From the sequence record MT446405.1: 64,000 bases of DNA, one strand, 5' to 3'. The translations under genes were made by a program, and so were the position numbers. The notes below the pieces were generated by a model, which saw only the letters and a program-made list of their open reading frames with translations, searched no databases and had not been told where the DNA came from. The stretch's first letter is position 1. Every line of letters starts with the position of its first letter. This DNA comes from Escherichia virus TH32. Shown in pieces: positions 1 through 54,645 of the stretch.

Positions 1-236
1 AGGCATATCTCATGAATGGTCTGGGTGGCACTTCTACCCTGACTGGCCCTTGCCCAAAGTTCAAAACGGCTATGTGACCAAATTCATTAAGTCGCGCGAC
101 TTCTGACACCAACATTCCTTCCCCACCAGTTTCTGAAGGGTATCTGGTAGAATCAAACCATCCTGCTTCAACAGTAAGACCCTTCATCGATTGAAGCGCC
201 TTTATCTGTTTTTCTATCATTTTTGATTTTGTCATA

Positions 237-818: not shown

Positions 819-819
819 C

Positions 820-1206
820 TCAAGTAGACACTGGAAAGCTTTGTTTTACTTCCACGGCAAGGCAAGACGTCCAACCATCTTGGTCAAACCATGTCGTTTC
901 ATCTTCCATCTTGTACGTTTTGCCACCAAACACAAAATAGTCGCCGGAAGCGTCGCGGTCAAGGTCAACAATGTCTTTGTCCACCCAGATTTTGACATAG
1001 TTCTTTTGAAGCTCTAAACCAAGCTCAACGTATTGGTTTCGAAGTACAGCCTGCACCGAAGCAAGTAAGGTGATTGGTTCTTCATATGTAGTGACATAGT
1101 TGCGCATCTTATCAAGGGTGCGCCCCTTGTACATGTAATATTGAATCGGTTGGCGACCGATAACCTTTGTCGCAACTCGATATAAGTTTACGCCAGGAAT
1201 CCTCAC
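820..1206 (-). CDS. hypothetical head-tail connector protein
   Basis: 128 aa ORF, start overlaps stop of upstream gene (coupled); position in head module. Confidence 0.3.
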   Translation of the reverse strand: MRIPGVNLYRVATKVIGRQPIQYYMYKGRTLDKMRNYVTTYEEPITLLASVQAVLRNQYVELGLELQKNYVKIWVDKDIVDLDRDASGDYFVFGGKTYKMEDETTWFDQDGWTSCLAVEVKQSFPVST

Positions 1207-1667
1207 CAGAATACCCCACCAATTTTACGGAATCCTTCACGCTCTGGAAGGCCGCCGAATGACAAGCCGCCAACGGCCAGTGCTTGAAGAAGCGCCCACA
1301 GCGCCATGCCATATGGAGTGCTTGATAGCCAGTATTCCCAGCCATCACTCGCAGGCGGCGCGACTTTGTTCACTGTGATGTCACCAATTGTTGCTCCAGT
1401 CACGAAGCCGCCTTGTTCAACTCCGTCACCAGAAGACACAGACACTTGTTGGTCTGCGGCTATGCATAAAAGATGAGCCGTCATATATTCCAATGCCAGC
1501 TCCAATTTACTGCCATTTAAAACACGACAAGGACTGTCTTGTGATTCAATAAATTCACATGCCATGTCATAGAATACTTGAAGTGTTGTGTCAGGGAATT
1601 TAACCTGATCAGCAAACTGTGGAAATTTAATTCTGAACTTTTCGTAATCTAATGACATGGCATTCAC
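1203..1667 (-). CDS. hypothetical head-tail connector protein
   Basis: 154 aa ORF tightly packed after capsid-side genes; no motif. Confidence 0.3.
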   Translation of the reverse strand: MNAMSLDYEKFRIKFPQFADQVKFPDTTLQVFYDMACEFIESQDSPCRVLNGSKLELALEYMTAHLLCIAADQQVSVSSGDGVEQGGFVTGATIGDITVNKVAPPASDGWEYWLSSTPYGMALWALLQALAVGGLSFGGLPEREGFRKIGGVFW

Positions 1668-1672
1668 CTTAT

Positions 1673-2137
1673 TTAAACGCGGAACAAATCATCTTCTTGG
1701 TCGCCGCTCAATTTTACCTTGATGCGCTTGTCAGCAGTTTCGCGCGTCATAGGCGCAAACGGGTCGTCTGACATGCTGCGAACTTCTTTAGCGACGGCTT
1801 TGTGGTTGCCAACAATGTCGTGATTTACGACTTTCACCAAACCTTTTTCAAGATGCTGCTTAAACACGTGATGATCTTTCAGATGCTCAAAATCTGCATC
1901 GCTTACAACGGTGACGATTCCTTCAGGAGTCCACAAAGGTGCACCGTCAGCGCCTTTTGCCATTTCACCAAAGCCGGAAGTTGCTGAAGTAAGACCAGCG
2001 CCGCCCTTGATTAGAATCTGTTTGCGAATATTTGGAAGAGCGCCTGAACCAGCTTTTGCATTCGGGTTTTCTTTCACTTCCGTATAGAAAGTGTAGTTAA
2101 CTGACATAGACATAGTTGAAACGATGTATTTTGACAT
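1673..2137 (-). CDS. hypothetical virion protein
   Basis: 154 aa ORF immediately downstream of putative capsid gene; antisense ORF 1802..1987 judged spurious. Confidence 0.3.
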   Translation of the reverse strand: MSKYIVSTMSMSVNYTFYTEVKENPNAKAGSGALPNIRKQILIKGGAGLTSATSGFGEMAKGADGAPLWTPEGIVTVVSDADFEHLKDHHVFKQHLEKGLVKVVNHDIVGNHKAVAKEVRSMSDDPFAPMTRETADKRIKVKLSGDQEDDLFRV

Positions 2138-2252
2138 TTTGTAGTCCTATTTATATAAGCCTCAGATAAGCCCCTACAGCCCTTGAGGTCTATTGATATG
2201 GGGCGAAGCCTTTCGACCACGCCCCATGTGTTTTACTGTGTAATCACAGCAA

Positions 2253-3392
2253 TTAAATACCAGTCATACGGACGACTGCGAACGGACGCTTGAGCAGAAC
2301 GCCTGCTGTTGCGTTTGCGTAGTCTTCAACGTAGCTCTTAGCACGCTTTTCAACGCCCAGAGTCATGAACTTGGTTTGAACCAGCTGACTGAATACGGAA
2401 CCATCATCGCTTGAACCATCGATTGAGGAATCGATGTGATCGGCGTACAGGTATGCCACGTTCAAGAAAGTCGGGTCACTGCCAAGTGCGCCGTTGAGTT
2501 CCGGTGCAGATTTGATCTTCATCTTCGGATAAGTCTGGGTGATCCAGTCACGTACAGAAATACCGAAGTCAGTGGTGTTGGACAGCCAATCGATAGAGTT
2601 AGTCGGCAGCGCCAGAGTCATGTCAACTTTCTCTGGATCAATCTGGTCCTGAGAGTTCACACGAATTTGACGAACCATCAAACGGATGTCTGCAGTTACC
2701 TGTTGGAAAGTCGCAGTAGCCCAGCCGGAAGTGGTGTTGGAAGTCATCGCCGCTGGCAGGTTTGGATCATTCAGGAAGCCGAATGTGCGGTTGTTCCCGT
2801 TGTACCAGCCATAGAAGCCGATTGCGTTACGCATGATTTCCAGAGATACAGCAGCCTGCTGGCGCTTGGTTTCTGCGGAGTTCAGACGCATCGCAGACGC
2901 GCGGCCTTCTTCCAGCATACCAACTGCCATGCCCATTTCGCCACGAACGATAGAACGACGTTCAAAGTTTACGTTCCAGCTTGCCAGAGGAATAGAGGTG
3001 AAATCACCATATTCGACTGCGGTGCCAGCTGGTTCAACGATGCCCTGAACGATTTCTGCATCTTCCCACTGACCAACGGTATCAATACCAACCAGCTCGT
3101 CGATTTTACGAGCAGCGGTCATGATTTTGACGAAGCCAGGCAACCACTGCTGCAGGAACTGCAACGGGGTCGGGATTGACGGAGTGGTCTGCGGCGCAGT
3201 AAACGCGGCATCACCTACGCGGAAAGCGCCTGCACGGTTTAAGTGCTCAATCTGATCACGCACAATCGCGGAATCAAACACAATACCGATACGAGCAAGC
3301 TGGGAAACAGCCGCGTCGGTGACGGATTGCATATCAAAAGGTCGCACCTTGCTCGCTGGGAGGCGAGAGTGTGTTTGGCTAATGCGAGTCAT
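2253..3392 (-). CDS. major capsid protein (putative)
   Basis: 379 aa, size and position (terL-portal-morphogenesis-scaffold-X-capsid order); no motif verified. Confidence 0.5.
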
Positions 3393-3406
3393 TATTCACC
3401 TGCCTA

Positions 3407-4024
3407 TTAACGAGTCAATTGTACAATGGTATAAGTGGAAGACTGGACGCTTGGGCCGGAAAGGGCAATAGCAGTCGGGTCAATCACGATACCGCCTGGA
3501 ATGGCAACCATGCCAGTTGGCAGTGAGCCAGTATAGGCGATAATTGCACCGATAGGCAAGTTGTTCGGGTTGTTACCGCTGGAAATGCCTTTAGGTACAT
3601 AAGCGAGCAGGTCGCCGTAGTTCAGCGTCTGCGGACTGGTGCTTGGGTTGAATACTTCAACTACGAGGCCCGTGCACATATCGTAGAACTCGCCTTCGCT
3701 ATATTGAGGCAGAACCATGCTGGCACCCAAAGGACCAGTAGAGTTGCCATACAGAGCGTAACGCTTGCTGTTGCCAAGGATGCCATAGTAATTGGTGCCG
3801 CCCAGTTCAACTTCAAAGTCCTGCGCGCCCAAGGTTTTGGTCTGGCCAGTACCCATTAATGACACATCAGCCTTAAAACCAAACACACGGCTGATGGCGT
3901 TTACGTTTGCACCGTCGTTGGCGCTAACGATTCGGCCTGGCTTCCCACGCTGTGGGCCGTCGCGAACGATGTCGCCAGGAAAGCCAGTTGTATATTGACG
4001 GCCTACACTAGTTTGGAAAGTCAT
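3407..4024 (-). CDS. Gly/Ser-rich capsid-associated protein (possible decoration protein)
   Basis: Start moved to Met at 4024 preceded by AAGGGGA RBS; lies between scaffold and capsid genes. Confidence 0.3.
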   Translation of the reverse strand: MTFQTSVGRQYTTGFPGDIVRDGPQRGKPGRIVSANDGANVNAISRVFGFKADVSLMGTGQTKTLGAQDFEVELGGTNYYGILGNSKRYALYGNSTGPLGASMVLPQYSEGEFYDMCTGLVVEVFNPSTSPQTLNYGDLLAYVPKGISSGNNPNNLPIGAIIAYTGSLPTGMVAIPGGIVIDPTAIALSGPSVQSSTYTIVQLTR

Positions 4025-4026
4025 GT

Positions 4027-5448
4027 TTATTCCCCTTTCAACCAAGCTTCAAATGCTTCGTCAGTTGCTGCAGAATCCGCAGCGGCCTTTTGTTTTGCGA
4101 CTACACGCTGTTTTTGACCGTGCTCAACGCCGCGCAGATAATTATCCACCACGTCAAACTCAGCCCCATCAACGCACTTCAAGCCTAACTTTTTAGCGCC
4201 ATATTTCGCTACGGACTTGGAGTCCATAGTTGCATGATCAAAGGCACCAACAACTTTAGACAGGCGCTGGTAGAGGCTATTCTTACGAGCAGAATCAGCG
4301 TAGAAAGCAGCAACTGCTGAATCAGATGCCATTGAGTGTTCCCCTTTTGCTGGACCTGGCGACGCTTTCGCCGCTTTTGTCGGTTTGTCATCTTTTTCGA
4401 CCGAAGCCCCCTTTACGTTGCTGTTTTGCAGGCCGCTAACCACATCTTCAGCTTTGTCGCAAGGTGATACATCTTCAGCCTTGACTTCAACTTCTTCTTC
4501 GTCTTTGACTTCGGCTTCAACTTCTTCTTCATCACCTACCGCGCCACCTTTCAGTTTTGCAATAAGTGCTTCGATTTGGCTGATCAATTGCGGAAGTTCG
4601 CCGCCAGCGTGAGATTCAGCTTCAACTTCAAACTTCTCTTCACCTTCTGGGGTTTCTTCTGCTTCTGCCTTGACTTCTGGATCAACCATTACTTCTTCAC
4701 GATTTTCGGTTGAGTCCTTCTCTTCTGCTTTCACTTCAACTTCATCCTGATGAGCAGCTTCAGTACTCTCTTCGTTCAGAAATTGTTCGAGCGCAGGAAT
4801 CAGTGATTTCAGCTGTTCAACAGCATTATCACGCGCTTTACCTTTTAACGGTTTTGGCATGTCTAAATCCTCGTTGGATGGTGTTACAGTCGTCAAACAA
4901 AGATGGTCAAAGCAACGACCATCCAGCACCCGTGCACCTGGTACTCGACCAACGTCCACGAGAGCAATGTGGTTGCCGCGAAGAGTTGTCTGCACCACTT
5001 CATACGGCTGCCCGTCAAACTCTCCAGACTGTATGATGAATTCACAGTCATAGCCCAAAGACAAGTCAACCTTTCCAGAATCAATGGCCTTCTTAAGACG
5101 ACGGCTGAACACTTTAAGGTCGCCGCGCATCCATGGCTTGTCATAATAAACATTGCCAGTCAGAACGCCATCAACTCCATACTCTTCGGGTGCTGTGTTA
5201 TCCTCATCACCTTCAAATCCAGAAAGCATTTCGTGATTGTCGATGAAAGGGATATTTTTGAATGAATCTATCGCTTCGGGGTCTTTCACCGCTGACTCAG
5301 GGCGATAGACTTTTACGATGCGATTCGGATCACCATCAAGACCAACTTGACCAGCAGAATAATCAAAAATGCCAAATGACGAAATTGGACAACCCATAAT
5401 CGTCAAGAATCCATTTTTGTCAATTTCGCGTGCCGTTTGCATTCGCAT
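4027..5448 (-). CDS. scaffolding protein (possibly fused to prohead protease-like N-domain)
   Basis: 473 aa with long acidic Glu/Val/Ala/Lys-rich central stretch (EEEVEAEVKDEEEVEVKAED...), GAGGGTGG RBS; position between portal and capsid genes. Confidence 0.45.
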   Translation of the reverse strand: MRMQTAREIDKNGFLTIMGCPISSFGIFDYSAGQVGLDGDPNRIVKVYRPESAVKDPEAIDSFKNIPFIDNHEMLSGFEGDEDNTAPEEYGVDGVLTGNVYYDKPWMRGDLKVFSRRLKKAIDSGKVDLSLGYDCEFIIQSGEFDGQPYEVVQTTLRGNHIALVDVGRVPGARVLDGRCFDHLCLTTVTPSNEDLDMPKPLKGKARDNAVEQLKSLIPALEQFLNEESTEAAHQDEVEVKAEEKDSTENREEVMVDPEVKAEAEETPEGEEKFEVEAESHAGGELPQLISQIEALIAKLKGGAVGDEEEVEAEVKDEEEVEVKAEDVSPCDKAEDVVSGLQNSNVKGASVEKDDKPTKAAKASPGPAKGEHSMASDSAVAAFYADSARKNSLYQRLSKVVGAFDHATMDSKSVAKYGAKKLGLKCVDGAEFDVVDNYLRGVEHGQKQRVVAKQKAAADSAATDEAFEAWLKGE

Positions 5449-5471
5449 CCACCCTCAAATAAGTATTGTGT

Positions 5472-5500
5472 ATTATATCTAATGAAAAAAACTTAGGCAA
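5472..5500 (-). promoter_or_regulatory. sigma70-like promoter for scaffold/capsid genes
   Basis: Minus strand TTGCCT-N17-TATAAT about 25 nt upstream of start at 5448. Confidence 0.4.
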
Positions 5501-5558
5501 ACAATAATTATGGTTTGAATATGTATAACAACCGATATAGCCGCGCCTTTATTAGTGT

Positions 5559-5830
5559 GATACGGATGATACGGATAAAATGAGGCGTATTTTTATCCGT
5601 ATCGGTGTATAAGCCGCGCTATCACTGGTGTGCTACGGATGATACGGATGATACGGATACTTTTCATATATAAGAGTTTATAAAAAAATAAAATTAAATT
5701 AGATATATAATTTTAAATTAATTTATTTGAATTCCTATATAGTACTGCGGCAACGCGTATCATCCGTATCATCCGTAAGATTCTTTTGAAAACAACAACT
5801 TACTTGATACGGATGATACGTCATTATACG
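5559..5830. repeat. iteron cluster flanking AT-rich core (copy 1)
   Basis: GATACGGATGATACGG-type repeats in both orientations at 5559-5577, 5634-5660, 5756-5779, 5806-5820 around a >85% AT core at 5660-5745. Confidence 0.7.
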
Positions 5831-6011
5831 TATAAAACTCGCAGCAATCCTTTGCCGATGAATTCAGTGAATATTAAATAGCACTCCTGCCACTAAAACG
5901 CCAATCAACATCGAGTCATAAACAGCCCATTTCCAAGAAAGCAAAGAGTTGCAATTAATATTTCGCACTTTAACATAACGTGACTGAATAATCTTTTGCA
6001 TAACTTCCTCT

Positions 6012-6932
6012 TTAGTTCAGCTTAATTGCGGTGATCTGTCCGTAAACGGTAGATGTCAACGCGTCGGTGCACTGATAGTTTAAATACACATTACCAGGCG
6101 CGGCAAGAGTAATTACTTTTGTTGGGATGTTGCCGCCGAAGCGACCTGCAGCCCGAATGCCAGCTGACATGGCAAATGCATCATCCGTAATATCTGAATT
6201 GCTTGTTGACAATTTGACTGTAATTCCGGTATTCGCTTGAACGCCTGCTGTCGCGACAGTCAACTGACTTGCTGTTACAAGCCATTTCCCTGCAGGAAGG
6301 TTTAAGGTTGCCAGATTGACCAAAGTTGTTGGAGGATTGCTGACGCTATTAGTGGCATTCTGGACGGTACTTGCTGCTGCATTAAGCACACCAGACCCAT
6401 CAATTGATAGAGTTGTACCGACCTTTACGCCGCCTAAAGTAGATGCTGAGGCAATCGGCAATGAGTATTGGGTGACGCTGATTGTACCATCACCTGCTAC
6501 GCTTATTCCGGTGCCTATTTTGACGCCACCAAGAACGGAAGCTGTTGCCGCTGGTAACGTGTATTGGTTGCCGCTGGTTTTCACAACTTTGACTGCGACA
6601 GCGTTTTTCGACCCTCCAGACTCCATACCTATGATCACTGCTTCACCAAAAGCAATGGTGATTGTTGATGCAGTCAAGCCAGTTTGAACGTCTGTGATGT
6701 TCATCTTAGGCACAGACAATGTCAGGTTAGGCTTGCTGGTCGAATCGCCATCATTGCCAATCATAAAGAATTGACCTACTGAGTTATACCCTGATGCAAG
6801 CGGCGGGCTCAGTGGAACAATCAAGTTTTTATCAGAAGTGAATTCTGAGACAATTGCCAAGCCATTAGCATACACCGCAGGCAAGACTGGAGTTTGTCCA
6901 GATAGAGGGAATGTGTTGATTGGTATCGTCAT
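6012..6932 (-). CDS. fibre-like repeat protein (head fibre/decoration or receptor-binding candidate)
   Basis: Internal duplicated motif ASVLGGVKIGTGISVAGDGTISV / ASTLGGVKVGTTLSIDGSGVLNA typical of phage fibre repeats; start set to Met at 6932 with GAGGT RBS. Confidence 0.4.
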   Translation of the reverse strand: MTIPINTFPLSGQTPVLPAVYANGLAIVSEFTSDKNLIVPLSPPLASGYNSVGQFFMIGNDGDSTSKPNLTLSVPKMNITDVQTGLTASTITIAFGEAVIIGMESGGSKNAVAVKVVKTSGNQYTLPAATASVLGGVKIGTGISVAGDGTISVTQYSLPIASASTLGGVKVGTTLSIDGSGVLNAAASTVQNATNSVSNPPTTLVNLATLNLPAGKWLVTASQLTVATAGVQANTGITVKLSTSNSDITDDAFAMSAGIRAAGRFGGNIPTKVITLAAPGNVYLNYQCTDALTSTVYGQITAIKLN

Positions 6933-6939
6933 AATGACC

Positions 6940-7791
6940 TCAGATAATTGGTATTTTTCTGCACTTGCAGTGTATTGCCCATCCAGGAGGACCGATGTCA
7001 CCCTTTTTGAACTTAAGTTCTCCACCTACTTCCCATAAGCGTTTGTCATCAAGCTTGAATCTCATGCCGTCGACGTGCTCATGTGATATTCGCGGCTCTT
7101 TGCCTGCTCCTGAATGCGCCCACTCAAATTCCTCAACGCCATTCTGTCGCATCCTTTCATCACTTAATACGCAATAAAGTTTGCTCGTTTGGTCTTTGGC
7201 GATAAGGTCTACGCGTTTTGCAGAGAATTGTTTTACATTCCTTAGTGCCGCCTGAATGCCGGATGTGCCTTGCTGCGCTGGGTCTGGCGAAGTCAGCGAA
7301 AGCATCACCGCTTCGTACACCCTGTTGTGAATATCCTCGCCAACCTTAGTCACTAGAGTCGTGTTGAACGTCTCGCTTGTTTTAAGAGTGTTCTCAACGA
7401 ATTTATTATATGTGGCTTTTGGCGCTTCTATTCCTGCAGATTTAAGACTTGCGAATGTAGCAGAAGTCGCACCCTTTTCAACTGACTTGATGAAATCTGC
7501 GGCAATCTTTGACCCAACACGGGCGAATGCTTTTGCCCATTTCAGTTGAAGGCGCTTCATCAAGGTCTGAAAAGTTGAATCAGCAGAGTCTTGCGCAAAG
7601 AACTTTTTCACCTGCTTCTTTTCAAGCCACTCAGCAATGCCTGCCTGATAGTCATCAATCATCGCATAGCAAAGACCTTTCATCTCACGACGATAGGCCA
7701 TCGCAATAGCGTTGGATGGGATTATCGGACTGCCGCGCCCGATTCTATCGGGTGAGCGGCGTTCGCGTTTTTTCGAAGCTTTAAAAGCCAT
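6940..7791 (-). CDS. head morphogenesis / minor head protein (putative)
   Basis: Basic N-terminus, position directly downstream of portal gene; start chosen at Met abutting portal stop. Confidence 0.35.
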   Translation of the reverse strand: MAFKASKKRERRSPDRIGRGSPIIPSNAIAMAYRREMKGLCYAMIDDYQAGIAEWLEKKQVKKFFAQDSADSTFQTLMKRLQLKWAKAFARVGSKIAADFIKSVEKGATSATFASLKSAGIEAPKATYNKFVENTLKTSETFNTTLVTKVGEDIHNRVYEAVMLSLTSPDPAQQGTSGIQAALRNVKQFSAKRVDLIAKDQTSKLYCVLSDERMRQNGVEEFEWAHSGAGKEPRISHEHVDGMRFKLDDKRLWEVGGELKFKKGDIGPPGWAIHCKCRKIPII

Positions 7792-7792
7792 A

Positions 7793-10168
7793 TCAACCTT
7801 GCTTCGGTGAATTAGTAGGATTATTGAGTGCTCCATATGCTTGAGAGCAATCACCCTTCAACCACTCCTTGAATGAGTTTACATCCAATTCGTGGATTGA
7901 GTCAAATCCATTCCAACCGTTACCAAATGATGCTTGATAAGCTTCTTTCGCTTCTTCTGCTGAATCAAATCCAAGCATACACTTGTGTTCATCAAATTCG
8001 CCAGAATAATTATCATTTTGGTTAACGATAAAGACTTTCGGCGACTTCATATTTGGACCAACAAAGCAGTCGACTTCATCGTCGTCTGCACCCTTGGTGC
8101 CTTTGATGAATCCGTAGTGGTGCGACATCTTCACTGCCCATTCACCGTCAAGGCTGTTCCCTCTACGGATGCTGTTGCGAGGATTCTCAATACCAAGAAT
8201 CATCCCGTGCAACTTCATCTTAGGTAATGATGCTGCGTCCATTTTACCAACGTTATGGCGTAAGTTTACGACGTTCCCTTTGACGCTTGGAAGGGTAGAC
8301 GGTTGCACCGACCGTGAATCTTTTTGAGGGTCAAAATCCACATCCTGCCCTTCTTTCAGGTAGTAATCAGCAATGCCCTCCAGACCTTCTTTCAACTGCG
8401 TTAGGACATCAACCTGATGGCTTGATTCATCATCGGTATCGTCCATGTTGATTTCGACAGGTGCTCTGTCAGGGTTTTCCGCCAACTCACCACGCGCGGC
8501 ACCTTCTGGCATAATACCTGTTTCGCTATAGAACTGGCCGCCCATCTTAACGACATCAGCTTTCGCCTGCTCAATATCGGCCTTACCTTGCAGGACTTCA
8601 CCAGCAGACTTGCCAAGCAATGCCATATTCTCTGGAGACATTCCTGGGGTTTCTTCTGCTGCGTCTTCCGGCAGACGGTTGTAGCCGCTGTTTTTGTCGT
8701 CTTTGATGCGGTCGCGCTCTTCATCAGGAGAAATGACGCCAGCATCAATAAGAGTTTTGCCAGTGTTAGCTCGCTTGTCGTTGATTTCTGCAAGTTGAGT
8801 AGCAGTAAGTGAGCCAACTGGTTCCCATGCAACCTTAACGTCGACTTCCACCCCTTCTGATTTGAGAAGGATTTTATAATGGCGGTCGAGAATTTTTGTC
8901 AGGTCATGCTGCTGGCACGTTTCCAACTCTTCGTGATAGCTGACCATCTCGAATTCACCAGTGGCGTTAAAGCCTTTTGGCGAAGTACCAAGCAGTTTGG
9001 TCGACGGAACTTTTGCGATTGCGGCCACCAGCTGGTACTGGTTCATGATGATGCTGTCGAAGTCTGACAAGTTAATGTCGAACTGGTCCATCTCTTCTTT
9101 TTGGCCAAGCACTTTGACTGCATAGTTGTCGCGATACTTGATCCACATCATCAGACGTTCGGCAAAAGACCGCTCATTGGCAATCGCCTTGTCAACGTCG
9201 GTCCGCAGCGTGGTTGTACGCTTGGACATCGCCAGCAATGGCGCTTCGTTAGCGGTGCGTTCAGCGGCATAGATGCGTTCATAAATCTGCTGAGTCAGAG
9301 GAATGCCGCCGTAAATATAAGTCGGCTTTAGAATATCAGCTGGCTCATCGTTGCGCAAGATGATTAGGTGGCTGCGATGATAACGCTGGCCGCTGATCAC
9401 CCAGTATTCTGGATCATAGAAGTGCTGTGATGCAGGGTCGGCGGTGTTTTCAGACGTCAAGAATGGCATCATCCAATAAGGGTCAACCTGAATAATTCCC
9501 TTATAAGACCCTTTTGTCACACCATCGATGTTAAAAGGTTTGCTATAATATTCTGGGTCATCGCTGCGCACGTCAAATATGATGACGCGAATGCCAAAAA
9601 TATTCTTGAATCGTTCGGCTTCAACTAAGTGCTCTTTGATATTAAATTCTTTATCAATTTGCTTTAGGCGTTCGCTGGCCTGTACTGACAATTCCGACTC
9701 AGAACTGGATTTGACTTCCCAGCCTTTACGGACCGCATCGCGGCCTACCATGGAACAAGCCTTGTTCACCAGCCAGTGCTGCGCGATGATGGCGCAAGCT
9801 TGATATCCGATAAATGATTGCGATAAGTACCAGTTTTGCAACTGAATAGGTACTGTGTATGGATTAACCTGCCCTTCTGAACTGATGTTCTTCAAGGCAT
9901 TGTCCATAACTTTTTTGGATACGGTTGCTGAATCTACTGAGCGACCTTTGATGATTGCAACACCGTCCCCGTTGATATCAGGCTCATATAAAGGAAAGTC
10001 ATCAACGGTTTTAAAGGTCGGGCGGTTGCTTTCGGTCTTATCCCAGCGTTGACCGCTGCCGCGCCTTTCCAGGCGTTCAAACGGTGCCAATGGGTCGCCT
10101 GGCGGCATCTCCGCTTGTTCGGCTTCTGGTTGCGTCTTCTCCCAGAGTTTTATGCCAAGAATTTTCAT
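7793..10168 (-). CDS. portal protein (putative)
   Basis: 791 aa ORF immediately downstream of terL block; start at Met 10168 with AGGTGG RBS; no motif verified. Confidence 0.5.
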   Translation of the reverse strand: MKILGIKLWEKTQPEAEQAEMPPGDPLAPFERLERRGSGQRWDKTESNRPTFKTVDDFPLYEPDINGDGVAIIKGRSVDSATVSKKVMDNALKNISSEGQVNPYTVPIQLQNWYLSQSFIGYQACAIIAQHWLVNKACSMVGRDAVRKGWEVKSSSESELSVQASERLKQIDKEFNIKEHLVEAERFKNIFGIRVIIFDVRSDDPEYYSKPFNIDGVTKGSYKGIIQVDPYWMMPFLTSENTADPASQHFYDPEYWVISGQRYHRSHLIILRNDEPADILKPTYIYGGIPLTQQIYERIYAAERTANEAPLLAMSKRTTTLRTDVDKAIANERSFAERLMMWIKYRDNYAVKVLGQKEEMDQFDINLSDFDSIIMNQYQLVAAIAKVPSTKLLGTSPKGFNATGEFEMVSYHEELETCQQHDLTKILDRHYKILLKSEGVEVDVKVAWEPVGSLTATQLAEINDKRANTGKTLIDAGVISPDEERDRIKDDKNSGYNRLPEDAAEETPGMSPENMALLGKSAGEVLQGKADIEQAKADVVKMGGQFYSETGIMPEGAARGELAENPDRAPVEINMDDTDDESSHQVDVLTQLKEGLEGIADYYLKEGQDVDFDPQKDSRSVQPSTLPSVKGNVVNLRHNVGKMDAASLPKMKLHGMILGIENPRNSIRRGNSLDGEWAVKMSHHYGFIKGTKGADDDEVDCFVGPNMKSPKVFIVNQNDNYSGEFDEHKCMLGFDSAEEAKEAYQASFGNGWNGFDSIHELDVNSFKEWLKGDCSQAYGALNNPTNSPKQG

Positions 10169-10274
10169 TGTTAACGCCACCTGACAGTGAAAGGGAATCA
10201 ATCTATATTATAAATATTCATGTGTTTGTAAGCAAATGATATGTATAGTAATCATAAATAGTTCATAAAATATT

Positions 10275-10986: not shown

Positions 10987-12447
10987 TTAAAGGTTAGAGA
11001 AGAAGCCGGATGCTGCAACGATTGGTTTCATCAATGCCATGATTGCTGCGTCCGCTTTGTTAGGTGATTTGACTCCACGCTTTGCCATATCCTTTTTGGA
11101 TTCAACTTTGAACTTGCCAAGAACAGACGTATCTTTGCGCGGCGCTGACATCTCAAAAAGAAACGTCTCAATCTCTTCAGTAGTCCAAGCTGGAATCCCA
11201 AGTTCCGGTATACCATCGGTGTCGATTGAAATCAATTCATCAGTCGGATATACGGCTTGCCCAGTTGCATATTCGTATGTCTTTCTGAATCTCTCTGCAA
11301 TTTCAGTCCACTTTTGCGCTTTTATGTTTGCGAAATGGTCTTTATTGAGTATTTCAACGTGTGGTAGCTCAAGAAAAACGTCATCAGGATCATCAACAGA
11401 CCCTTGCGCGTTGAACGCATTAAATTCGATTCTTGGAAATGATGGATTTTCATGTATTGCATACTCGTTTAGTTCATCAAATTTTGAACCAGCAAAAGCG
11501 CCGACACCGATGGCGTCATAAGTTATAGAAGCGCCAAATGTAAGCGCATCTTTCCAAACTCCGCTTGCCGATTTCAACAATTCATCTTCCAGACCTTCCC
11601 ACGTCTTGATGCCGCGCAATACGTTTCCTGTAACGAATGCAGTGGCGTTAAGGTCGTCGCCATCGTCCGCTACGTCAAAGCCTATACGGTTAGACCCTGA
11701 CAAACTCCAGCCCAGCGTAGGGTGTTTGTGGAGATTAAGAGCGGCCTTAACGAATGCACGGTTGATTACAGATTTATCGCCGCCAGTCTTCGGCACGCCG
11801 CCATAAACGTGCTCTGCCTTTTTCGGGTCGCGCTCGTACATGCCTGCGATAACATCCAGCATTGTTTGCGACAAGAATGGGTTGTCTTGCCAGTTTATCT
11901 TTTTAACTATGGCATTCTTCGGCGGTCGCATAACAAAGTTTTGGTAGACGAAATCGGCCTCTTCATCAGGGTTAAAGATGATCCATATTTCTGACCCTTC
12001 TTTACGGATTGTCGGCTCAATAATGTCCCACTGTTCTTCAGTAAGTGCGTGCGCTTCTTCCAGCCAAAGAACATCAACACCTTCCGTTGATTTAATTTCA
12101 TCAACGTTACGTGCGATACCGTAAAATAGAAATTCAGATTTAGTTCTTTTATGCTCGATAGAGTTCTTTAATAAATTGAACTCATCTTTAAAATCAGAAA
12201 TCTCTATTTTATCTTTTAATAGAGTATATACAGATTCAGAAATCTTGTTCTGGAATTGTCGAACGCAAAGGAATTTTAATTTGAAGTTTGCCGCCAAATA
12301 AATAGCAAAACCAGCGGCATCATGCGATTTGGAAGATGCACGACCGCCGTATATTACTTTGTATCGCGCTTTTGTCTTCCAGACTTCTTTTAAAGCAGGA
12401 TTCAACTGGTACATGACTTTCCAATTATGTGTTAATATTTTATTCAT
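10987..12447 (-). CDS. terL: terminase large subunit
   Basis: N-terminal Walker A-like VIYGGRASSKSHD, terminase-like ATPase plus C-terminal nuclease-sized domain; 486 aa. Confidence 0.85.
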   Translation of the reverse strand: MNKILTHNWKVMYQLNPALKEVWKTKARYKVIYGGRASSKSHDAAGFAIYLAANFKLKFLCVRQFQNKISESVYTLLKDKIEISDFKDEFNLLKNSIEHKRTKSEFLFYGIARNVDEIKSTEGVDVLWLEEAHALTEEQWDIIEPTIRKEGSEIWIIFNPDEEADFVYQNFVMRPPKNAIVKKINWQDNPFLSQTMLDVIAGMYERDPKKAEHVYGGVPKTGGDKSVINRAFVKAALNLHKHPTLGWSLSGSNRIGFDVADDGDDLNATAFVTGNVLRGIKTWEGLEDELLKSASGVWKDALTFGASITYDAIGVGAFAGSKFDELNEYAIHENPSFPRIEFNAFNAQGSVDDPDDVFLELPHVEILNKDHFANIKAQKWTEIAERFRKTYEYATGQAVYPTDELISIDTDGIPELGIPAWTTEEIETFLFEMSAPRKDTSVLGKFKVESKKDMAKRGVKSPNKADAAIMALMKPIVAASGFFSNL

Positions 12448-12523: not shown

Positions 12524-12550
12524 GGCCAGATTCTTTCTGGCCATTTTTTT
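12524..12550 (+). terminator. hairpin + T7 tract in 5' leader (attenuator-like)
   Basis: GGCCAG-attcttt-CTGGCC followed by TTTTTTT, located between promoter and RBS of 12565 gene. Confidence 0.4.
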
Positions 12551-12564
12551 ATCAGGAGTAAACC

Positions 12565-12795
12565 ATGGCCCTAGTCAACATTCAACTCACTCCCTCTTAT
12601 ACTTCCGTAATCTCTGTTGCTGAAAACGTATCAGGAGCACTTATTCAAGTTCGCGGCGGTGCCGCTGAGATTTGTTTTGGGGAAAAGGCCGATGACAATT
12701 TGATCGGAATCGCAGTTGTTGGTACAGTCACAATCCCGCCAGGCGTTGAGATTTTCGCAAAGGGAAGTGGCACATTAATTGTGTCTTCACACTGA
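12565..12795 (+). CDS. hypothetical protein
   Basis: 76 aa, CAGGAG RBS. Confidence 0.45.
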   Translation: MALVNIQLTPSYTSVISVAENVSGALIQVRGGAAEICFGEKADDNLIGIAVVGTVTIPPGVEIFAKGSGTLIVSSH

Positions 12796-12883
12796 TACGA
12801 TGCCATGGACGGCATAATTCACAAAAAGTTTGCCTTTCTGAAACTCTGCGTTATAATCATATTAACTCAAAACCGGAGGTAAT

Positions 12884-13099
12884 ATGAAACTCATCGACCG
12901 CGCCATCAAAGCCATAGACAACCATTCCACGGCTATTGCATTTGTAATGGGATTCTGTTTTACTGCTGCGTTTGGCGACGTTCACACATTCAAGTCTGTC
13001 ATCTTGTGCTGGTCTATCTGGTCCCTCATTTCTCTGGTTTTGATTCTTCCGATGACGTGGCTTGTCCTTACTTGTCTGGAATCTCAAGGTGAAGACTGA
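12884..13099 (+). CDS. small membrane protein (two TMDs; holin-like candidate)
   Basis: 71 aa with two hydrophobic segments and charged C-terminus; GGAGG RBS. Confidence 0.45.
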   Translation: MKLIDRAIKAIDNHSTAIAFVMGFCFTAAFGDVHTFKSVILCWSIWSLISLVLILPMTWLVLTCLESQGED

Positions 13100-13320
13100 T
13101 GAGACTATCAATAAAAGAGCGGGCAAAACGTCCCAAAAGGAGTGAGCCAAAAGCGAAATATACATGCGTAGGCGGTCCATTCGACGGTCAAGCGATGTGG
13201 CTTTCAAAATCTAATCCATCGACGGTTGAGTTTAGCCTTCATGGAATGCGCGGCAGATACCTGCTAAACAGAGAAACAATCGGCAGCACATTTGTGGAGT
13301 GGAAAGAAAATGGCAAGTGA
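13099..13320 (+). CDS. hypothetical protein
   Basis: 73 aa, ATGA start/stop overlap with upstream gene. Confidence 0.4.
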   Translation: MRLSIKERAKRPKRSEPKAKYTCVGGPFDGQAMWLSKSNPSTVEFSLHGMRGRYLLNRETIGSTFVEWKENGK

Positions 13321-13543
13321 ATTAACTTTAAAAGTACCAAAAGAAGTGCTAGATAAGGCATATGCAGATTCTGTAAAAGAATTGGCCGTGGTGCTTGGGA
13401 TTGAAAATGAATTTAACGTTCAATTGCAATTCCTTAAGGACACGCTTCAAATTAAAGAGAATAGAGAGGCTGGAAGCGGTGCGCCTTTAGCTCTGGCAAT
13501 CCTCTATACAGGTCTGATTTTGCAATCTGGAGACGAACTGTGA
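13310..13543 (+). CDS. hypothetical protein
   Basis: ATG at 13310 in frame of listed ORF 13292..13543. Confidence 0.35.
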   Translation: MASELTLKVPKEVLDKAYADSVKELAVVLGIENEFNVQLQFLKDTLQIKENREAGSGAPLALAILYTGLILQSGDEL

Positions 13544-13739
13544 ATCGTTGGTGCAGTTGGAAGTTGAAACGTCTTGCCTGGGCCAATGCCGCCAATTCTG
13601 CTGGCGTCATCACCGCTGGCGTTGGGTCGGTATGGGATGGCGAAGGCCGTTGGGACTCGCTGTGTGGTACGCGCCTATTCTTTCGCGTAAAATAATTATC
13701 ACCCTTCCCACTTCGGGAAGGGAATTTAAAGAGGTTATC

Positions 13740-14081
13740 ATGAACAACACTTTATCACAACTGCTAATCTGGACTATCGCCGCTATCATCGGCACCGTTA
13801 TTATGATGTCAAGCGCAAAGGCTGAAACGGATATTTGCGGCAGACTGATTTCTGAAAACGGTGAAATTTACTATGGCAACTCAAAAGGCGATTACATATC
13901 ACCTGAAGTTTGCGCTCAGAAGAAAGCGGAAATGCAAAAGCAGTATCATGAAGATCAATCTATATCTCAAGCCGCGCTGATTGAATTAAGTATATCAGCC
14001 ATCATCTTTCTAATCGTTTTTATGCTCATTATTAAACCAAATAATGGCAGTAATCGTCATATTCCTCTCAAAAGAAATTAA
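13740..14081 (+). CDS. membrane protein with N-terminal signal/TMD and C-terminal TMD
   Basis: Internal Met 13740 with AAAGAGG RBS; the W/R/C-rich N-terminal extension of ORF 13548 judged non-coding. Confidence 0.45.
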   Translation: MNNTLSQLLIWTIAAIIGTVIMMSSAKAETDICGRLISENGEIYYGNSKGDYISPEVCAQKKAEMQKQYHEDQSISQAALIELSISAIIFLIVFMLIIKPNNGSNRHIPLKRN

Positions 14082-14119
14082 GGTTATAATACGGTTGTCG
14101 ACAAAAAGAGGACCGTAAA

Positions 14120-16423
14120 ATGCCAAGGCTAATATTCAAAAACAACTTTGAGGTCGCACTGGCTCAGCCAACGACGACTTCAGACACCACAATCACAATC
14201 CGCTCAGGGTCTGGCTTTCCGACCTTGGCCGCAAACGAGCGTGTAGTGGCGACAATCGTCGACGCTGCAACAGGCCTCCAATTCGAAATCGTCACAGTAA
14301 CAGCCGTGGTCGGAAACGTGTTGACTGTCCAGCGTGCACAGGAAGGTACTGCAGCGCGTGCATGGGCGGCTGGCGACATGCTCTCCATTCGAACTACTGC
14401 TGCGACTTTGACTAATACCGTCCGAAATTACGGCACAATTCCATCAGGGATGGATTTGAACGCATTAGATGGCACCTGGTTTGGGGAATATCAGCAACCA
14501 AGTGCAGGCGCGGCATCCAGTTCTTTACACTATCCTGTTTCACAAGCAGGGGTATTACTTGTCAAACAGGTGAACGAGCAAAATCCATCTCACTGCATTC
14601 AAATATACTATCCTACACTGGAAGGAATAGTATATGTCAGAAGGTACAGAGGTTCATGGACTGGATGGGTTCAAATGTTTGGTCAAGGCGATGTTATTCC
14701 AGTAGGGAATGGCGGTACAGGCCAAACAACCATTCAGGGGATGAAAGACGCTTTTGGATTTGGAACAGTTGCTGATCAGAATATAGTTCCGACTTCCATG
14801 GGCGGCACAGGTTCTGCTGATAATGCTCAAGCATGGCTCAACATTCGACCGCAAGGTTCAACGCCGCTGGCGGGTGACCCAGTAAACGATTATGACGCTA
14901 CGACTAAACGTTGGGTTGAGAACTTGATCAACACAGGCACCGTTGGCCCAAGCATGAACGGTGTCATGAATTATGGCGTTGGCGATTTCCATTTACGAGA
15001 TAGTCGTGCTTACATCCAACCGTATGAAGTTGTTGCAGACGGGCAATTGCTAAACCGTGCGGACTGGCCTGAGCTTTGGGCTTATGCGCAGATGCTGACG
15101 CCTATTGCTGATGCAGACTGGCTTGCAGACCCTTTGAAGCGCGGAAAATATTCGCTTGGTAACGGCACAACAACATTCCGTGTACCAGACCGTAACGGTG
15201 TGCAAACAGGGTCCATAGATTCATTGTATGCACGTGGCGACGGTGGAATATCAAGTTTAAACGGTAACGTGATCGAATCAGGCGCACCAAACATTACTGG
15301 ATCACTAAGGACTGTAACTTCTTATTCGGTCTTCGAGTCTGTATCAGGAGTCACAGGAGCATTTAACGGTTCAGAGTTGCAACAATACGCGGGGTTGACT
15401 GTAGCGCCTGGTTCTGCAAGTAACTATCCGAGAACGGTAACGTTCAACGCATCAAGGTCAAGTCCTGTTTACGGCAGAACTTCCACTGAAATCCGACCGA
15501 AATCATTCATCGGTGTTTGGGTGATTCGTGCATCTGGTGGATTTGTTGCTGCGAATACGCAGTGGAGTGTAATTACTGGTGACTCATCCCGTCCGTCATC
15601 AGGAGTAACAACGGACGGTGGCGAAATAATTTCAAGATATAATATTGGAACGGCACAGGAAGCCCAGATGAGCTGGCGCGTCCGAGCTTTAATCGGCGGG
15701 ACATATTATGCTCGACTTAATGTATCGAACGCAACAAAAGGCACCACCACTGTATTTGATTTTGACGACACTGGCGCAATGGCTGCTCCTGGTCCAATTT
15801 CTGCTGGTGCTGCTGGTTCCAATTTTAAAAGCACAATAGAAGTAAATAACGTTTCTTATCCAGGACTTTTGTTCAAGCCTACGTACACAAATGGAAGCGT
15901 GATACCTGATACTGTTGTTGGAGGGAATACATTTTTTGAATGCTCATTTATTCAGGGGCAAATATCAGGCGTGCAATTGTATCGTAGAAGGAAAGACGGG
16001 ATTGCCACAGGGCAAATAGCAATTTCCTTCCCTACCACTGCAGGAACGCTTGCACTTCAAGGCACATCAGGCATTGAATATAAAAAGGACGTTGTAGATG
16101 CAGATGCCAAGGAAGCTATGGAGCGAATCAATTCGCAGCGTCTTGTCAATTTCATTTATAAGGATGATGAGCAAGAGCGTGTGAGATTTGGTATAATCGC
16201 TGAAGAAGCAGAATTGATTGCGCCGCAATATATCAAGCACAATCAAGAAAACGTTTCCGACATTCTTGATGAAGAAGGAAACAAGATAGGCGAGGAAACG
16301 CGCGACCGACCTTCAGTTGACACCAACCCAATCGTAATGGACTTGATGGGTTGTGTGCAATATCTCAATAAGCAGATTGAGGATTTGAAGGCAGAGATAG
16401 CCGCGCTGAAAGCAGCGAAATAA
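14120..16423 (+). CDS. tail fibre/tailspike with C-terminal intramolecular chaperone (peptidase S74) domain
   Basis: C-terminus GIIAEEAELIAPQYI ... DLMGCVQYLNKQIEDLKAEIAALKAAK matches the auto-cleaving chaperone domain of endosialidase/L-shaped fibre proteins. Confidence 0.8.
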   Translation: MPRLIFKNNFEVALAQPTTTSDTTITIRSGSGFPTLAANERVVATIVDAATGLQFEIVTVTAVVGNVLTVQRAQEGTAARAWAAGDMLSIRTTAATLTNTVRNYGTIPSGMDLNALDGTWFGEYQQPSAGAASSSLHYPVSQAGVLLVKQVNEQNPSHCIQIYYPTLEGIVYVRRYRGSWTGWVQMFGQGDVIPVGNGGTGQTTIQGMKDAFGFGTVADQNIVPTSMGGTGSADNAQAWLNIRPQGSTPLAGDPVNDYDATTKRWVENLINTGTVGPSMNGVMNYGVGDFHLRDSRAYIQPYEVVADGQLLNRADWPELWAYAQMLTPIADADWLADPLKRGKYSLGNGTTTFRVPDRNGVQTGSIDSLYARGDGGISSLNGNVIESGAPNITGSLRTVTSYSVFESVSGVTGAFNGSELQQYAGLTVAPGSASNYPRTVTFNASRSSPVYGRTSTEIRPKSFIGVWVIRASGGFVAANTQWSVITGDSSRPSSGVTTDGGEIISRYNIGTAQEAQMSWRVRALIGGTYYARLNVSNATKGTTTVFDFDDTGAMAAPGPISAGAAGSNFKSTIEVNNVSYPGLLFKPTYTNGSVIPDTVVGGNTFFECSFIQGQISGVQLYRRRKDGIATGQIAISFPTTAGTLALQGTSGIEYKKDVVDADAKEAMERINSQRLVNFIYKDDEQERVRFGIIAEEAELIAPQYIKHNQENVSDILDEEGNKIGEETRDRPSVDTNPIVMDLMGCVQYLNKQIEDLKAEIAALKAAK

Positions 16424-16430
16424 TTCACTC

Positions 16431-16458
16431 AAGGCGCTGAAAAGCGCCTTTACTTTAT
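16431..16458 (+). terminator. rho-independent terminator
   Basis: GGCGCT-gaaa-AGCGCC hairpin followed by TTTACTTT. Confidence 0.6.
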
Positions 16459-16504: not shown

Positions 16505-16792
16505 ATGAAATTCGAAGACATCGATAAGGCTCAAAAAGCAAAGGCTCTTCCAAAATATTTGATTTGCGGCATTGACCCTGCAGACAAGCGCCTTGTCTTT
16601 TTGAAAGCCGTCAAGGGTGATGAACATGGCAACGCAGTTGATTGGTGCATCCCGCTCTTTGAGACAAAGGGAGAAGCCGAACAGGCATTGTTAGAAAGCA
16701 AGATGCCTTCGCATTACAAAGTCAGGACTCAAGATGAAATTCCAACCTTGATTTTGGACAACATTAACAGCGGAGAAGACTCTAATGGATAA
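16505..16792 (+). CDS. hypothetical protein
   Basis: ATG at 16505 after AGGTGAGGTGG RBS. Confidence 0.45.
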   Translation: MKFEDIDKAQKAKALPKYLICGIDPADKRLVFLKAVKGDEHGNAVDWCIPLFETKGEAEQALLESKMPSHYKVRTQDEIPTLILDNINSGEDSNG

Positions 16793-52183: not shown

Positions 52184-52207
52184 AAGGCCCATATGGGCCT
52201 TTTCTTA
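52184..52207. terminator. bidirectional rho-independent terminator
   Basis: Perfect palindrome GGCCCATATGGGCC flanked by A-run and T-run between convergent genes. Confidence 0.7.
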
Positions 52208-52857: not shown

Positions 52858-54645
52858 TTATGCGCTTCTGTACCAGCCGTTCAAGACGACATATCGCGGC
52901 AGGGTTGAGACAGCCGTTGGAACAGACTGCCCTGCGTTGCCAGTGTTACCGACCACATCGTGAGTGTGAGCGGGAAGGGTATAGCTATGGCTGTGATTGC
53001 CAGCGTAATTTATATTCAACCCATGGGTGTGTGACCCAGAAGATTGGATATTGTGGACGTGGTTGCCGTTAGTCGAGGTGTTGTATTTGTAGTTATCCCA
53101 GTCGCCGCCCTTTCGACTGCCGAAGTTGTTGTGCGTATTGTCATACACGCCATACCGCGCATCATTCGTATTCGCCTCACCCCAGCTACTGTCATGGTGG
53201 TGGTTGCCTGCCGAATCCATTCCGTGCACGTGAGCACCGTTTTGACTGGTATCGCCTGTGTGGTTATGGCTGCCCGCATCTCCAGTGGTATTTGACCATG
53301 GACCGCTTTGTCGCGTAGTAATGTTCACGCTGTGATTGTGCAGAGGAAGCATGGCGGCGGTAAGGGTGACGGAGTCCGCGCCGCCAGTGGCAAGACCGTT
53401 TCGTGCCGTGCCGGATGTTCTGATGACCATGTTATCAGGCAATCTGGTCCACACCTGTCCATAAGCGCCAAGCTTGGTGTTTGGGTTGGTGCCATTAGTC
53501 AAGAATCGAGTCTCACCGACTTCGAATACATCACCCATAGTGATCAACTTAGAAGCCAAATCATCGAGTTGACGCTTTGTCACAAACTGTTGCGGCTCAC
53601 TAGCATCAACACCGATTTGCGCCGCGCCGAATGCTTGAAGAAGACGCCAGACTGTTCCGTCATAAATAATGGTGAAAGGCAGCAGACCGACGATGGACCC
53701 TGCTGGCAACTCGCCGCCGTCGAATCCAAGGACGGCAACCTTGTTTGCACCAATGGTCACGGTGACAGGCCCAGTGGTCGTGACATCATTGACGATGGTC
53801 AGGCGACTACCTGCTGACGGAGGCCATGAATAACCTGCTGGAACGGTAAGGATTATATCTTGTGCGCCTTTACCTGATGCAAGATTCGGCGTTCCAATTT
53901 GCACGTCTTGAACAGTAGCATTTTGAATCCAGGCACTCCAAGCACCAGAAGTATAAGAGCGGGTGAAAACATATCCGTTCATTGACGTGTATTGTTGCAG
54001 GGCGAAAGTCTGCGCATCAACCTGCCAAGCGCAAACCTGGAGGCGACCTGCAGCCTTCGTCGCACCAACCGCGTTCGGGATGTTAGAGCAGAGAGCGGCA
54101 ACGGCGTCAGATTGAATGACAATAGTTGTGGAAGTCGTGATATTATCAAAGTCCACAAAGTTTGAAATCAGTCCGCGAACAAAATACGGGTTTTGCGCAT
54201 CGCCGCCAGCAGGCATAGGAATATACTTTCGCGCTTCGCTAGGCAGCGTTAATTCCTGCCAAGATTCCGTTTCGCCGTTGGCTGGTACGGCGCTGGTGTT
54301 GCCGTCAACCACGCTCTGGAAAATGCGCCACTCAGGCGCTGAAGGAGTTCCAGAGTTGCTTACCACGATGGCGTTTTTCGGGTATCCATCTGGCTTCAAG
54401 TCAGACGAGAAATACTGTTGAGCGCCGTGGTCCTGGATGAACATCAGGTTGTCGGTGATCAGATTCAACAACCAGTTCATCGACTCACGTTCAACCGCTT
54501 TCGCGGCGACGTTTCCAGCTTCCAGAGCAAGTGCATAGTCAGGGGTGTAGCCGCGCTGGAAGTTCACATAACCGCTTGGGCTTGCATCCGGCACCACGGA
54601 TACATCACCGCTTTGCGCGAAAGGTCTGTTAATAAGTGTTGGCAT
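52858..54645 (-). CDS. tail fibre protein with His-x-His repeat tip (gp37-like distal fibre)
   Basis: C-terminal cluster of HxH motifs (HNHSVN, GSHNHTG, AHVHG, NHHHD, NHVHN, SHTHG, NHSHS, AHTHD); start at Met 54645 with GAGGAA RBS. Confidence 0.65.
   Translation of the reverse strand: MPTLINRPFAQSGDVSVVPDASPSGYVNFQRGYTPDYALALEAGNVAAKAVERESMNWLLNLITDNLMFIQDHGAQQYFSSDLKPDGYPKNAIVVSNSGTPSAPEWRIFQSVVDGNTSAVPANGETESWQELTLPSEARKYIPMPAGGDAQNPYFVRGLISNFVDFDNITTSTTIVIQSDAVAALCSNIPNAVGATKAAGRLQVCAWQVDAQTFALQQYTSMNGYVFTRSYTSGAWSAWIQNATVQDVQIGTPNLASGKGAQDIILTVPAGYSWPPSAGSRLTIVNDVTTTGPVTVTIGANKVAVLGFDGGELPAGSIVGLLPFTIIYDGTVWRLLQAFGAAQIGVDASEPQQFVTKRQLDDLASKLITMGDVFEVGETRFLTNGTNPNTKLGAYGQVWTRLPDNMVIRTSGTARNGLATGGADSVTLTAAMLPLHNHSVNITTRQSGPWSNTTGDAGSHNHTGDTSQNGAHVHGMDSAGNHHHDSSWGEANTNDARYGVYDNTHNNFGSRKGGDWDNYKYNTSTNGNHVHNIQSSGSHTHGLNINYAGNHSHSYTLPAHTHDVVGNTGNAGQSVPTAVSTLPRYVVLNGWYRSA

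Follow-up and report, generated by a model that had tools for sequence, protein, structure and literature searches.

A mosaic tail fibre with an S74 chaperone, encoded beside the terminase gene of a Wifcevirus-like Escherichia phage

The fibre gene and its locus

The DNA analysed here, hereafter the window, is a stretch of 64,000 nt of Escherichia virus TH32 (record MT446405.1), and the gene under study is a large plus-strand open reading frame (ORF) that starts 1,673 nt from the start codon of the gene for the large terminase subunit (TerL) and is transcribed divergently from it (Table 1). A preliminary description, made from the sequence without database searches, had taken this ORF for a tail fibre carrying an S74 intramolecular chaperone and had proposed a formal domain search. 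Both parts of that description were borne out: the closest PHROG is a tail fibre (PHROG 6921, E=6e-206), and the Pfam profile Peptidase_S74 (PF13884) matched aa 652-703 (E=1.1e-6), its 29.2 bits exceeding the curated cutoff of 22. A megablast search with the gene led to Wifcevirus, a group of E. coli and Shigella myoviruses with genomes of 66-72 kb, and TerL shares 99.8% identity with its FEC19 counterpart; on these similarities we assign the window to a Wifcevirus-like myovirus with a genome of about 68 kb. By its syntenic position, the ORF is identified as the orthologue of the T-shaped fibre with two receptor-binding domains (RBD1 and RBD2) of this genus (ManiWeber Gp114, vB_Eco4M-7 gp27), and we consider it very probable that its product is the variable tail fibre that specifies the host of a Wifcevirus-type E. 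coli myovirus. Coverage of the gene by INPHARED records stayed below 80%, ECO71P1 coming first with 77% at 89% identity; the exact 767-aa protein is already present in NCBI/Logan (P0001).

The preliminary description had also placed the gene about 36 kb from the tail module. The 36,435 nt that separate the two are a distance along the linear window only, and TerL lies 1.7 kb away. On the circular map of Bas98, the genes from TerL to the endolysin form one unbroken operon of 28.5 kb, and the T-shaped fibre gene lies on the opposite strand, just past the origin. What stands of the earlier statement is that the gene is separate from the tail module, about 27 kb of operon lying between it and the gene of a second fibre, rich in HxH motifs.

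The terminator attributed to the gene by the same description was recovered. An intrinsic-terminator-like hairpin begins eight nt past the stop codon, with a stability of -13.6 kcal/mol (z=-3.1 against shuffles); it is unchanged in seven genomes, and the WFC RefSeq record (NC_048195) lists it as a terminator. Terminator and promoter scans of the fibre region gave no enrichment over shuffles, and the hairpin is called a terminator because of its conservation, position and stability. Upstream, the 38-nt spacer that precedes the start codon is unchanged at 36 of its 38 positions over seven genomes and is possibly an internal promoter, judging from its TATAAT. Its motif GGTTATAATAC has four matches in the window for 1.1 expected, a count also reached by 2 of 100 shuffles; since this repetition is weak, no phage-specific promoter is claimed. 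A better sigma-70-like, promoter-like site was found at 12830-12857, 5' of the small-gene cluster, and this plus-strand cluster is probably co-transcribed with the fibre gene.

Table 1. Position and basis of the features of the fibre locus, of the blocks of the fibre protein and of the other structural genes in the window (homologues are the 117 full-length fibre proteins described in the text)
Feature	Residues (aa)	Position (nt)	Strand	Basis or remark
Tail fibre gene	1-767	14120..16423	+	ATG-initiated ORF, 767 aa, 82.1 kDa precursor
N-terminal anchor domain	1-103	14120..14428	+	at least 86% identity across 117 homologues
Block C1	1-120			conserved, at least 86% pairwise; 1 type
Pyocin-knob domain (cassette V1)	104-195	14429..14704	+	profile and fold match to R-pyocin knobs
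Block V1	121-195			variable; 33 types
Shaft/collar block C2	196-375	14705..15244	+	conserved, at least 86% pairwise in 117 homologues; 1 type
RBD1 tip (cassette and block V2)	376-465	15245..15514	+	variable; 36 types in 117 homologues
Linker (block C3)	466-480	15515..15559	+	VWVIRASGGFVAANT; conserved, conservation 0.99 over 117 homologues
Distal RBD2 (cassette V3)	481-649	15560..16066	+	possibly T5 pb1 tip-like
Block V3	481-645			variable; 21 types
Block V4	646-750			variable; 13 types
S74 intramolecular chaperone	650-767	16067..16420	+	13.4 kDa; Pfam profile, Ser/Lys dyad, fold
Ser650 codon	650	16067-16069	+	
Lys655 codon	655	16082-16084	+	
Block C-end	751-767			conserved
Spacer before fibre ATG		14082..14119	+	38 nt; TATAAT 14085-14090, GAGG ribosome-binding site
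Terminator-like hairpin		16431..16450	+	AAGGCGCU-GAAA-AGCGCCUU then UACUUUAU (U-rich tail)
Small-gene cluster between TerL and fibre		12565..14081	+	syntenic in all relatives
TerL		10987..12447	-	first gene of minus-strand structural operon; PHROG terminase large subunit, E=7e-75
Head genes (portal, protease, major capsid protein)		237-10201	-	
Tape-measure-like/lytic tail protein, baseplate hub and wedge genes		57.4-63 kb	-	
912-aa structural protein		54656-57394	-	
HxH fibre		52858..54645	-	595 aa; PHROG 5717 tail protein, E=2.5e-174; last structural gene before endolysin
Endolysin		52205-52849	-	

Mosaic organisation of the fibre

The alignment of 117 full-length fibre homologues (740-800 aa), most of them encoded on contigs of some 68 kb, with types defined at 80% identity, shows conserved blocks separated by variable ones (Table 1), the four variable blocks being combined in 76 different ways among these proteins. 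V1, V2 and the V3/V4 pair assort independently: between them, 7-23 quartets of types display all four combinations, and the pairwise-identity correlations are 0.20-0.32. V3 and V4 form 21 pairs, any given V3 type being accompanied by one V4 type; no four-combination quartet is found and the correlation reaches 0.82. This single V4 type per V3 type indicates that RBD2 travels with a compatible chaperone, and one chaperone type may serve several RBD2 types.

The N-terminal anchor resembles that of the tail fibre in PDB 8JOV, chain 1 (E=1e-6), and is similar to tail fibres of Burkholderia, Ralstonia, Klebsiella, Pantoea and Yersinia phages; it is presumed to attach the fibre to the baseplate, as proposed for relatives (PMC11990801). 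The shaft/collar block contains a collar-like motif (ADGQLLNRADWPELW ... GNGTTTFRVPDRNG). The Pfam Collar profile is sub-threshold at aa 343-360 (E=0.078) and significant in 4 of 49 homologues, and hhalign of the fibre against T4 gp12 gave a probability of 0.3%, that is, no match; the block is at least 86% identical to that of orthologues with a reported Gp12-like RBD1 domain. The short linker C3 is likely a recombination anchor. Structure prediction covered the monomer only, and the AlphaFold2 model of the full-length chain was poor (predicted local distance difference test, pLDDT, 56; predicted template modelling score, pTM, 0.26), with aa 200-387 below a pLDDT of 50 and unusable.

In the allele of the window, the knob is similar to that of P0013 (94%), and RBD2 and chaperone are similar to those of ECO71P1 and P0002-3 (97-98%). 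The RBD1 tip is unmatched, with at most 59% identity in the 117 homologues and at most 64.5% in all sequenced phages (Salmonella T5-like phage Kenya-K42). By these comparisons the tip counts as a distinct allele, and its receptor is therefore not predictable.

Three other homologues (P0019, P0059 and P0097) stem from Wifcevirus-sized contigs of about 68-69 kb, and their NCBI names are tagged '[Escherichia coli]'. Complete genomes of virulent Wifcevirus thus appear to sit as contigs within bacterial assemblies, via contamination or a carrier state.

A variable pyocin-type knob

Cassette V1 holds a knob of the R-pyocin type. The profile of aa 100-200 matched R2 and R1 pyocin fibres (6CT8, E=7e-11; 6CL6, 1.3e-10; 6CL5, 4.5e-6), and the knob modelled alone (pLDDT 80.6, pTM 0.72) was superposed by Foldseek on 6CL5, 6CT8 and 6CL6 with TM scores of 0.69-0.72 at 26-30% identity. 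Close relatives of the fibre are named 'pyocin knob domain-containing S74 family peptidase' at NCBI, and related knobs are found in rV5-like, T5-like and Dhillonvirus fibres and in Pbunavirus Pa193 gp47. In the R1 and R2 pyocin fibres the knobs are elements of the shaft and lipopolysaccharide is bound by the C-terminal foot, whereas the window fibre has one knob only, a hypervariable one that is swapped separately from the remaining modules. The published description of the Wifcevirus fibre gives the N-terminus as highly conserved and names only two RBDs (PMC11990801). The knob is as diverse as both recognised RBDs, with 33 types in 117 fibres, and recombines apart from them. That it would be a third, independently exchangeable ligand-binding module, and not a passive shaft element, is a tentative suggestion that we think rather unlikely to be right.

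S74 chaperone and predicted cleavage

The S74 profile was matched in 49 of 49 fibre homologues, and Ser650 and Lys655 (GTS-GIEY-K), which correspond to the Ser1264/Lys1269 dyad of T5 pb1, are unchanged in 117 of 117 full-length homologues. The predicted fold comprises a mixed alpha/beta body, a beta-hairpin and a terminal coiled-coil helix (aa 735-766), in the C-terminal part of the AlphaFold2 model, a confidently predicted part (pLDDT about 70-92); hardly any variation is seen in the last 12 aa (L-K/E-AEIAALKAAK). In T5 pb1 the bond Thr1263-Ser1264 is cut, and phage adsorption is blocked by the processed protein only (PMC4690869). Because of this cut in pb1, cleavage of the window fibre is predicted at Thr649|Ser650, which would yield a mature fibre of 68.7 kDa and the 13.4-kDa chaperone. 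The sequence likeness to the L-shaped fibre tip of T5 pb1 (PDB 4UW8) and to the K1F endosialidase chaperone (3GW6) is confined to an S74 core of about 55 aa, the receptor-binding parts of both being without detectable sequence kinship to the window fibre.

The endosialidases have a catalytic domain, and an S74 chaperone could also serve the catalytic beta-helix or beta-propeller of an enzymatic tailspike, an endosialidase-like depolymerase that degrades capsule or O-antigen. Searches of the fibre against Pfam, PHROGs, NCBIfam and PDB sequences found no sialidase, pectate-lyase or other catalytic domain, and NCBIfam matched neither the S74 fibre nor the HxH fibre. A match to 6EU4 was recovered by the knob model alone and reflects the knob, not a catalytic domain. 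Furthermore, the entire distal half of the protein is homologous to the LtfA fibre of phage DT57C, and the chaperone is the only part held in common with endosialidases. The tailspike reading, very improbable on these data, was rejected for want of any catalytic domain in the protein.

A second fibre and probable presence in the virion

The preliminary description had noted an HxH-type fibre in the tail module and had suggested that the virion may carry two distinct receptor-binding proteins. In the minus-strand product, the C-terminal 130 aa contain eight HxH motifs (ORF positions 455-581). The start called by the program, a GTG at 54702, creates a 47-nt overlap with the upstream gene; because of this overlap, and since Bas98_0031 has 1788 nt (595 aa), the true start is probably the ATG at 54645. 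The orthologue of this fibre is genus-conserved, has a predicted T4 gp37-like tip and is encoded among the tail genes (PMC11990801). The two-fibre arrangement of Wifcevirus, including the separate locus, was published by Humolli et al. (2025, PLoS Biol; PMC11990801), in whose account the T-shaped fibre starts with an anchor at its N-terminus, bears a Gp12-like RBD1 and a T5-like RBD2, and ends in an intramolecular chaperone (PMC11990801), and the WFC record has carried the Peptidase_S74 and downstream terminator annotation since 2019.

Mass spectrometry (MS) of relatives agrees with two fibres in one virion. In vB_Eco4M-7, gp27 was detected at 82.7 kDa with 34 peptides and 80% coverage (Necel et al. 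2020, PMC7048862), with the highest score among the matches listed for this phage (PMC7048862), and the 63.4-kDa tail-module fibre gp63 was also detected (PMC7048862), as was the S74 fibre orthologue gp24 in ECML-117 (PMC7048862). The locus-tag mapping of the vB_Eco4M-7 proteins was verified. The same preparations included non-structural proteins too (PMC7048862), and for this reason the detection of the orthologues is supportive, not conclusive, for presence in the virion.

One may accordingly ask if the protein is a stable virion component at all, or a soluble decoy, an adhesin or an assembly factor, with a virion bearing the HxH fibre only. Its gene does lie outside the structural operon, amid small genes of unassigned function, and the mixed composition of the preparations would fit. 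We hold this to be extremely unlikely: the orthologue tops the scores in vB_Eco4M-7 and recurs in ECML-117, the N-terminal domain resembles tail-fibre attachment domains, including the one in the virion structure 8JOV, and Bas98-101 are fully O-antigen dependent while their HxH fibre is invariant. A separately encoded S74 mosaic fibre that accompanies a conserved HxH fibre is thus the picture already published for Wifcevirus, and what the window adds is one allele combination, plus the variable knob as a minor observation.

Age of the locus and exchange with other phages

The gene order is the same in seven of seven Wifcevirus genomes: TerL on the minus strand, four to six small plus-strand genes, the fibre gene, the terminator and further small genes. 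The flanks of the fibre are near-invariant and only its internal cassettes differ. The preliminary description had read the separate locus as a sign of modular acquisition and host-range switching, and had proposed to compare it across related phages for fibre swapping. In this comparison, the exchange of cassettes was found inside the gene, while the locus itself is fixed and any acquisition of it old. Since the slot is syntenic and its flanks near-invariant, the gene is not a currently mobile cassette. As read from the alignments, host-range variation would be a matter of cassette exchange inside the fibre gene between invariant linkers, not of gene relocation.

The opposite view, that the entire gene was acquired recently, along with its promoter-like spacer and its terminator, as a moron-like cassette that is mobile to this day, can draw on the TATAAT spacer and the terminator that bracket it, and on the distal modules, which are common to unrelated phage families. 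It can also draw on Pbunavirus DL52 (TerL 64% identical), which has a divergent small-gene array and no large fibre gene at the equivalent locus. The constant position and neighbours of the gene in the seven genomes, the near-invariance of its N-terminal 120 aa and of both flanks, with variation internal only, and the unremarkable GC content of the fibre region (0.47, against 0.41-0.51 over the window) leave that view a slim chance. We conclude from the fixed locus, the invariant anchor and flanks and the ordinary GC content that transfer of the whole gene predates the genus and that exchange is now sub-genic. Neither the N-terminal 200 aa nor the distal 538 aa, used as tblastn queries, brought up a Pseudomonas phage among the matches listed. 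Long ago, the Wifcevirus lineage probably acquired the fibre gene, or Pbunavirus lost it.

With the T-shaped fibres of its own genus (ManiWeber/Bas99 Gp114, HermannAdler/Bas98 gp110, WFC gp013 and vB_Eco4M-7 gp27), the window fibre shares the locus divergent from TerL, the anchor (at least 86%), the 196-375 block, the S74 chaperone, the terminator and the partner HxH fibre. It differs from them in its allele combination, and its overall identity is 58-62% to those isolates and 82% to ECO71P1. Kinship of the distal half extends beyond the genus. Residues 230-765 align with residues 538-1074 of DT57C LtfA (PDB 8HQZ, chain d; E=2.9e-239, 68% identity), and the two proteins have the same S-x4-K site, with 87% identity in the shaft/collar, 100% in the linker and 88% in the chaperone, but only 43% in the RBD1 tip and 52% in RBD2. 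The high chaperone and low RBD2 identities are consistent with the relation between RBD2 types and chaperone types described above, in which one chaperone type may serve several RBD2 types. DT57C is a siphovirus, and its LtfA has a T5-type N-terminus, a long proximal shaft and a second fibre, LtfB, as partner, and neither the knob nor the Wifcevirus anchor. Comparable distal regions are encoded by Dhillonvirus (about 61%), Gordonclarkvirinae (about 55%) and Salmonella T5-like phages.

The ligand of LtfA is an O22-like O-antigen, and in experiments recombination within this gene region switched the host range (Golomidova et al. 2016, PMC4728585). A transfer of the O22 specificity to the window fibre was considered and rejected, the variable cassettes being just 43-52% identical. 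The Wifcevirus phages Bas98-101 depend on the O16 O-antigen (PMC11990801), and by analogy the receptor of the window fibre is most likely an O-antigen or a similar surface glycan.

Neighbouring genes

The protein encoded directly 5' of the fibre (13740..14081, plus strand, 113 aa) has a predicted N-terminal signal peptide and C-terminal transmembrane helix; it is conserved genus-wide and the vB_Eco4M-7 record bears a Phobius note for it. Two other small plus-strand genes have MS-detected orthologues in vB_Eco4M-7, namely 12565..12795 (76 aa; gp32, 55% coverage) and 16505..16792 (95 aa; gp26, 62% coverage), both products being without a Pfam match. It is possible that the plus-strand cluster forms a small late or structural unit and that the 76-aa and 95-aa proteins are associated with the fibre or the virion. 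Between the TerL start and the first plus-strand gene, a terminator-like hairpin followed by a T-run (GGCCAGA-TTCTT-TCTGGCC, 12524..12542, plus strand) is likewise annotated as a terminator in WFC. The only plus-strand genes 5' of it are two small ones within the head module (about 10.3-10.98 kb), and the hairpin might stop transcripts running antisense through TerL.

In the head module, the portal protein (7793..10201, minus strand, 802 aa; Phage_portal_3 at aa 133-479, E=4e-88) is fused at its C-terminal side to an InPase domain (PF18823, inorganic pyrophosphatase) at aa 660-782 with E=1.2e-45, an unusual combination, and this domain also matches PHROGs of DarB-like anti-restriction proteins and of giant virion proteins. 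A 337-aa protein of the same module (6012..7025, minus strand) matches the phi29-type Phage_head_fibr profile (E=2e-6, 27.8 bits for a cutoff of 24.6). Its orthologue is labelled 'tail fiber protein' in Bas98, and the product is probably a mis-annotated head fibre.

Proposed mechanism and implications

From the domains, the catalytic dyad, the synteny and the mosaic pattern observed here, and from the presence in phage preparations and the O-antigen dependence known from work on relatives, we propose the following model, whose trimerisation, T-shape, cleavage site and processing, attachment site, receptor class and expression timing we infer. The gene would be expressed in a small plus-strand unit, divergent from TerL and ending at its own terminator. 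Three chains would form one fibre, docked on the baseplate by the invariant N-terminal 100 aa, followed by the pyocin-type knob, the conserved shaft/collar and the lateral RBD1 tip, while the distal RBD2 would fold with the help of the S74 chaperone (aa 650-767). After correct folding of the trimer, the Ser650/Lys655 dyad would cut Thr649-Ser650 and the 13-kDa chaperone would depart, exposing the binding surface of RBD2. The conserved HxH fibre would act next, as a second, invariant fibre. Specificity would evolve by recombination at the invariant linkers, swapping the knob, the RBD1 tip and the block formed by RBD2 and the chaperone, in an exchange that may extend to T5-like, Dhillonvirus and Gordonclarkvirinae phages.

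In practical terms the gain is modest, the window adding one more natural allele combination. Clean junctions for host-range engineering in the fast-replicating Wifcevirus would be provided by the invariant linkers (aa 1-120, 196-375, 466-480 and 751-767), and the coupling of RBD2 and chaperone suggests swapping each RBD2 together with its own chaperone type. Ligand binding by the knob, if real, would make the fibre tri-specific and give it a larger combinatorial space for host range, and a hypervariable, independently assorting knob would be a small, testable addition to the published model of the fibre.

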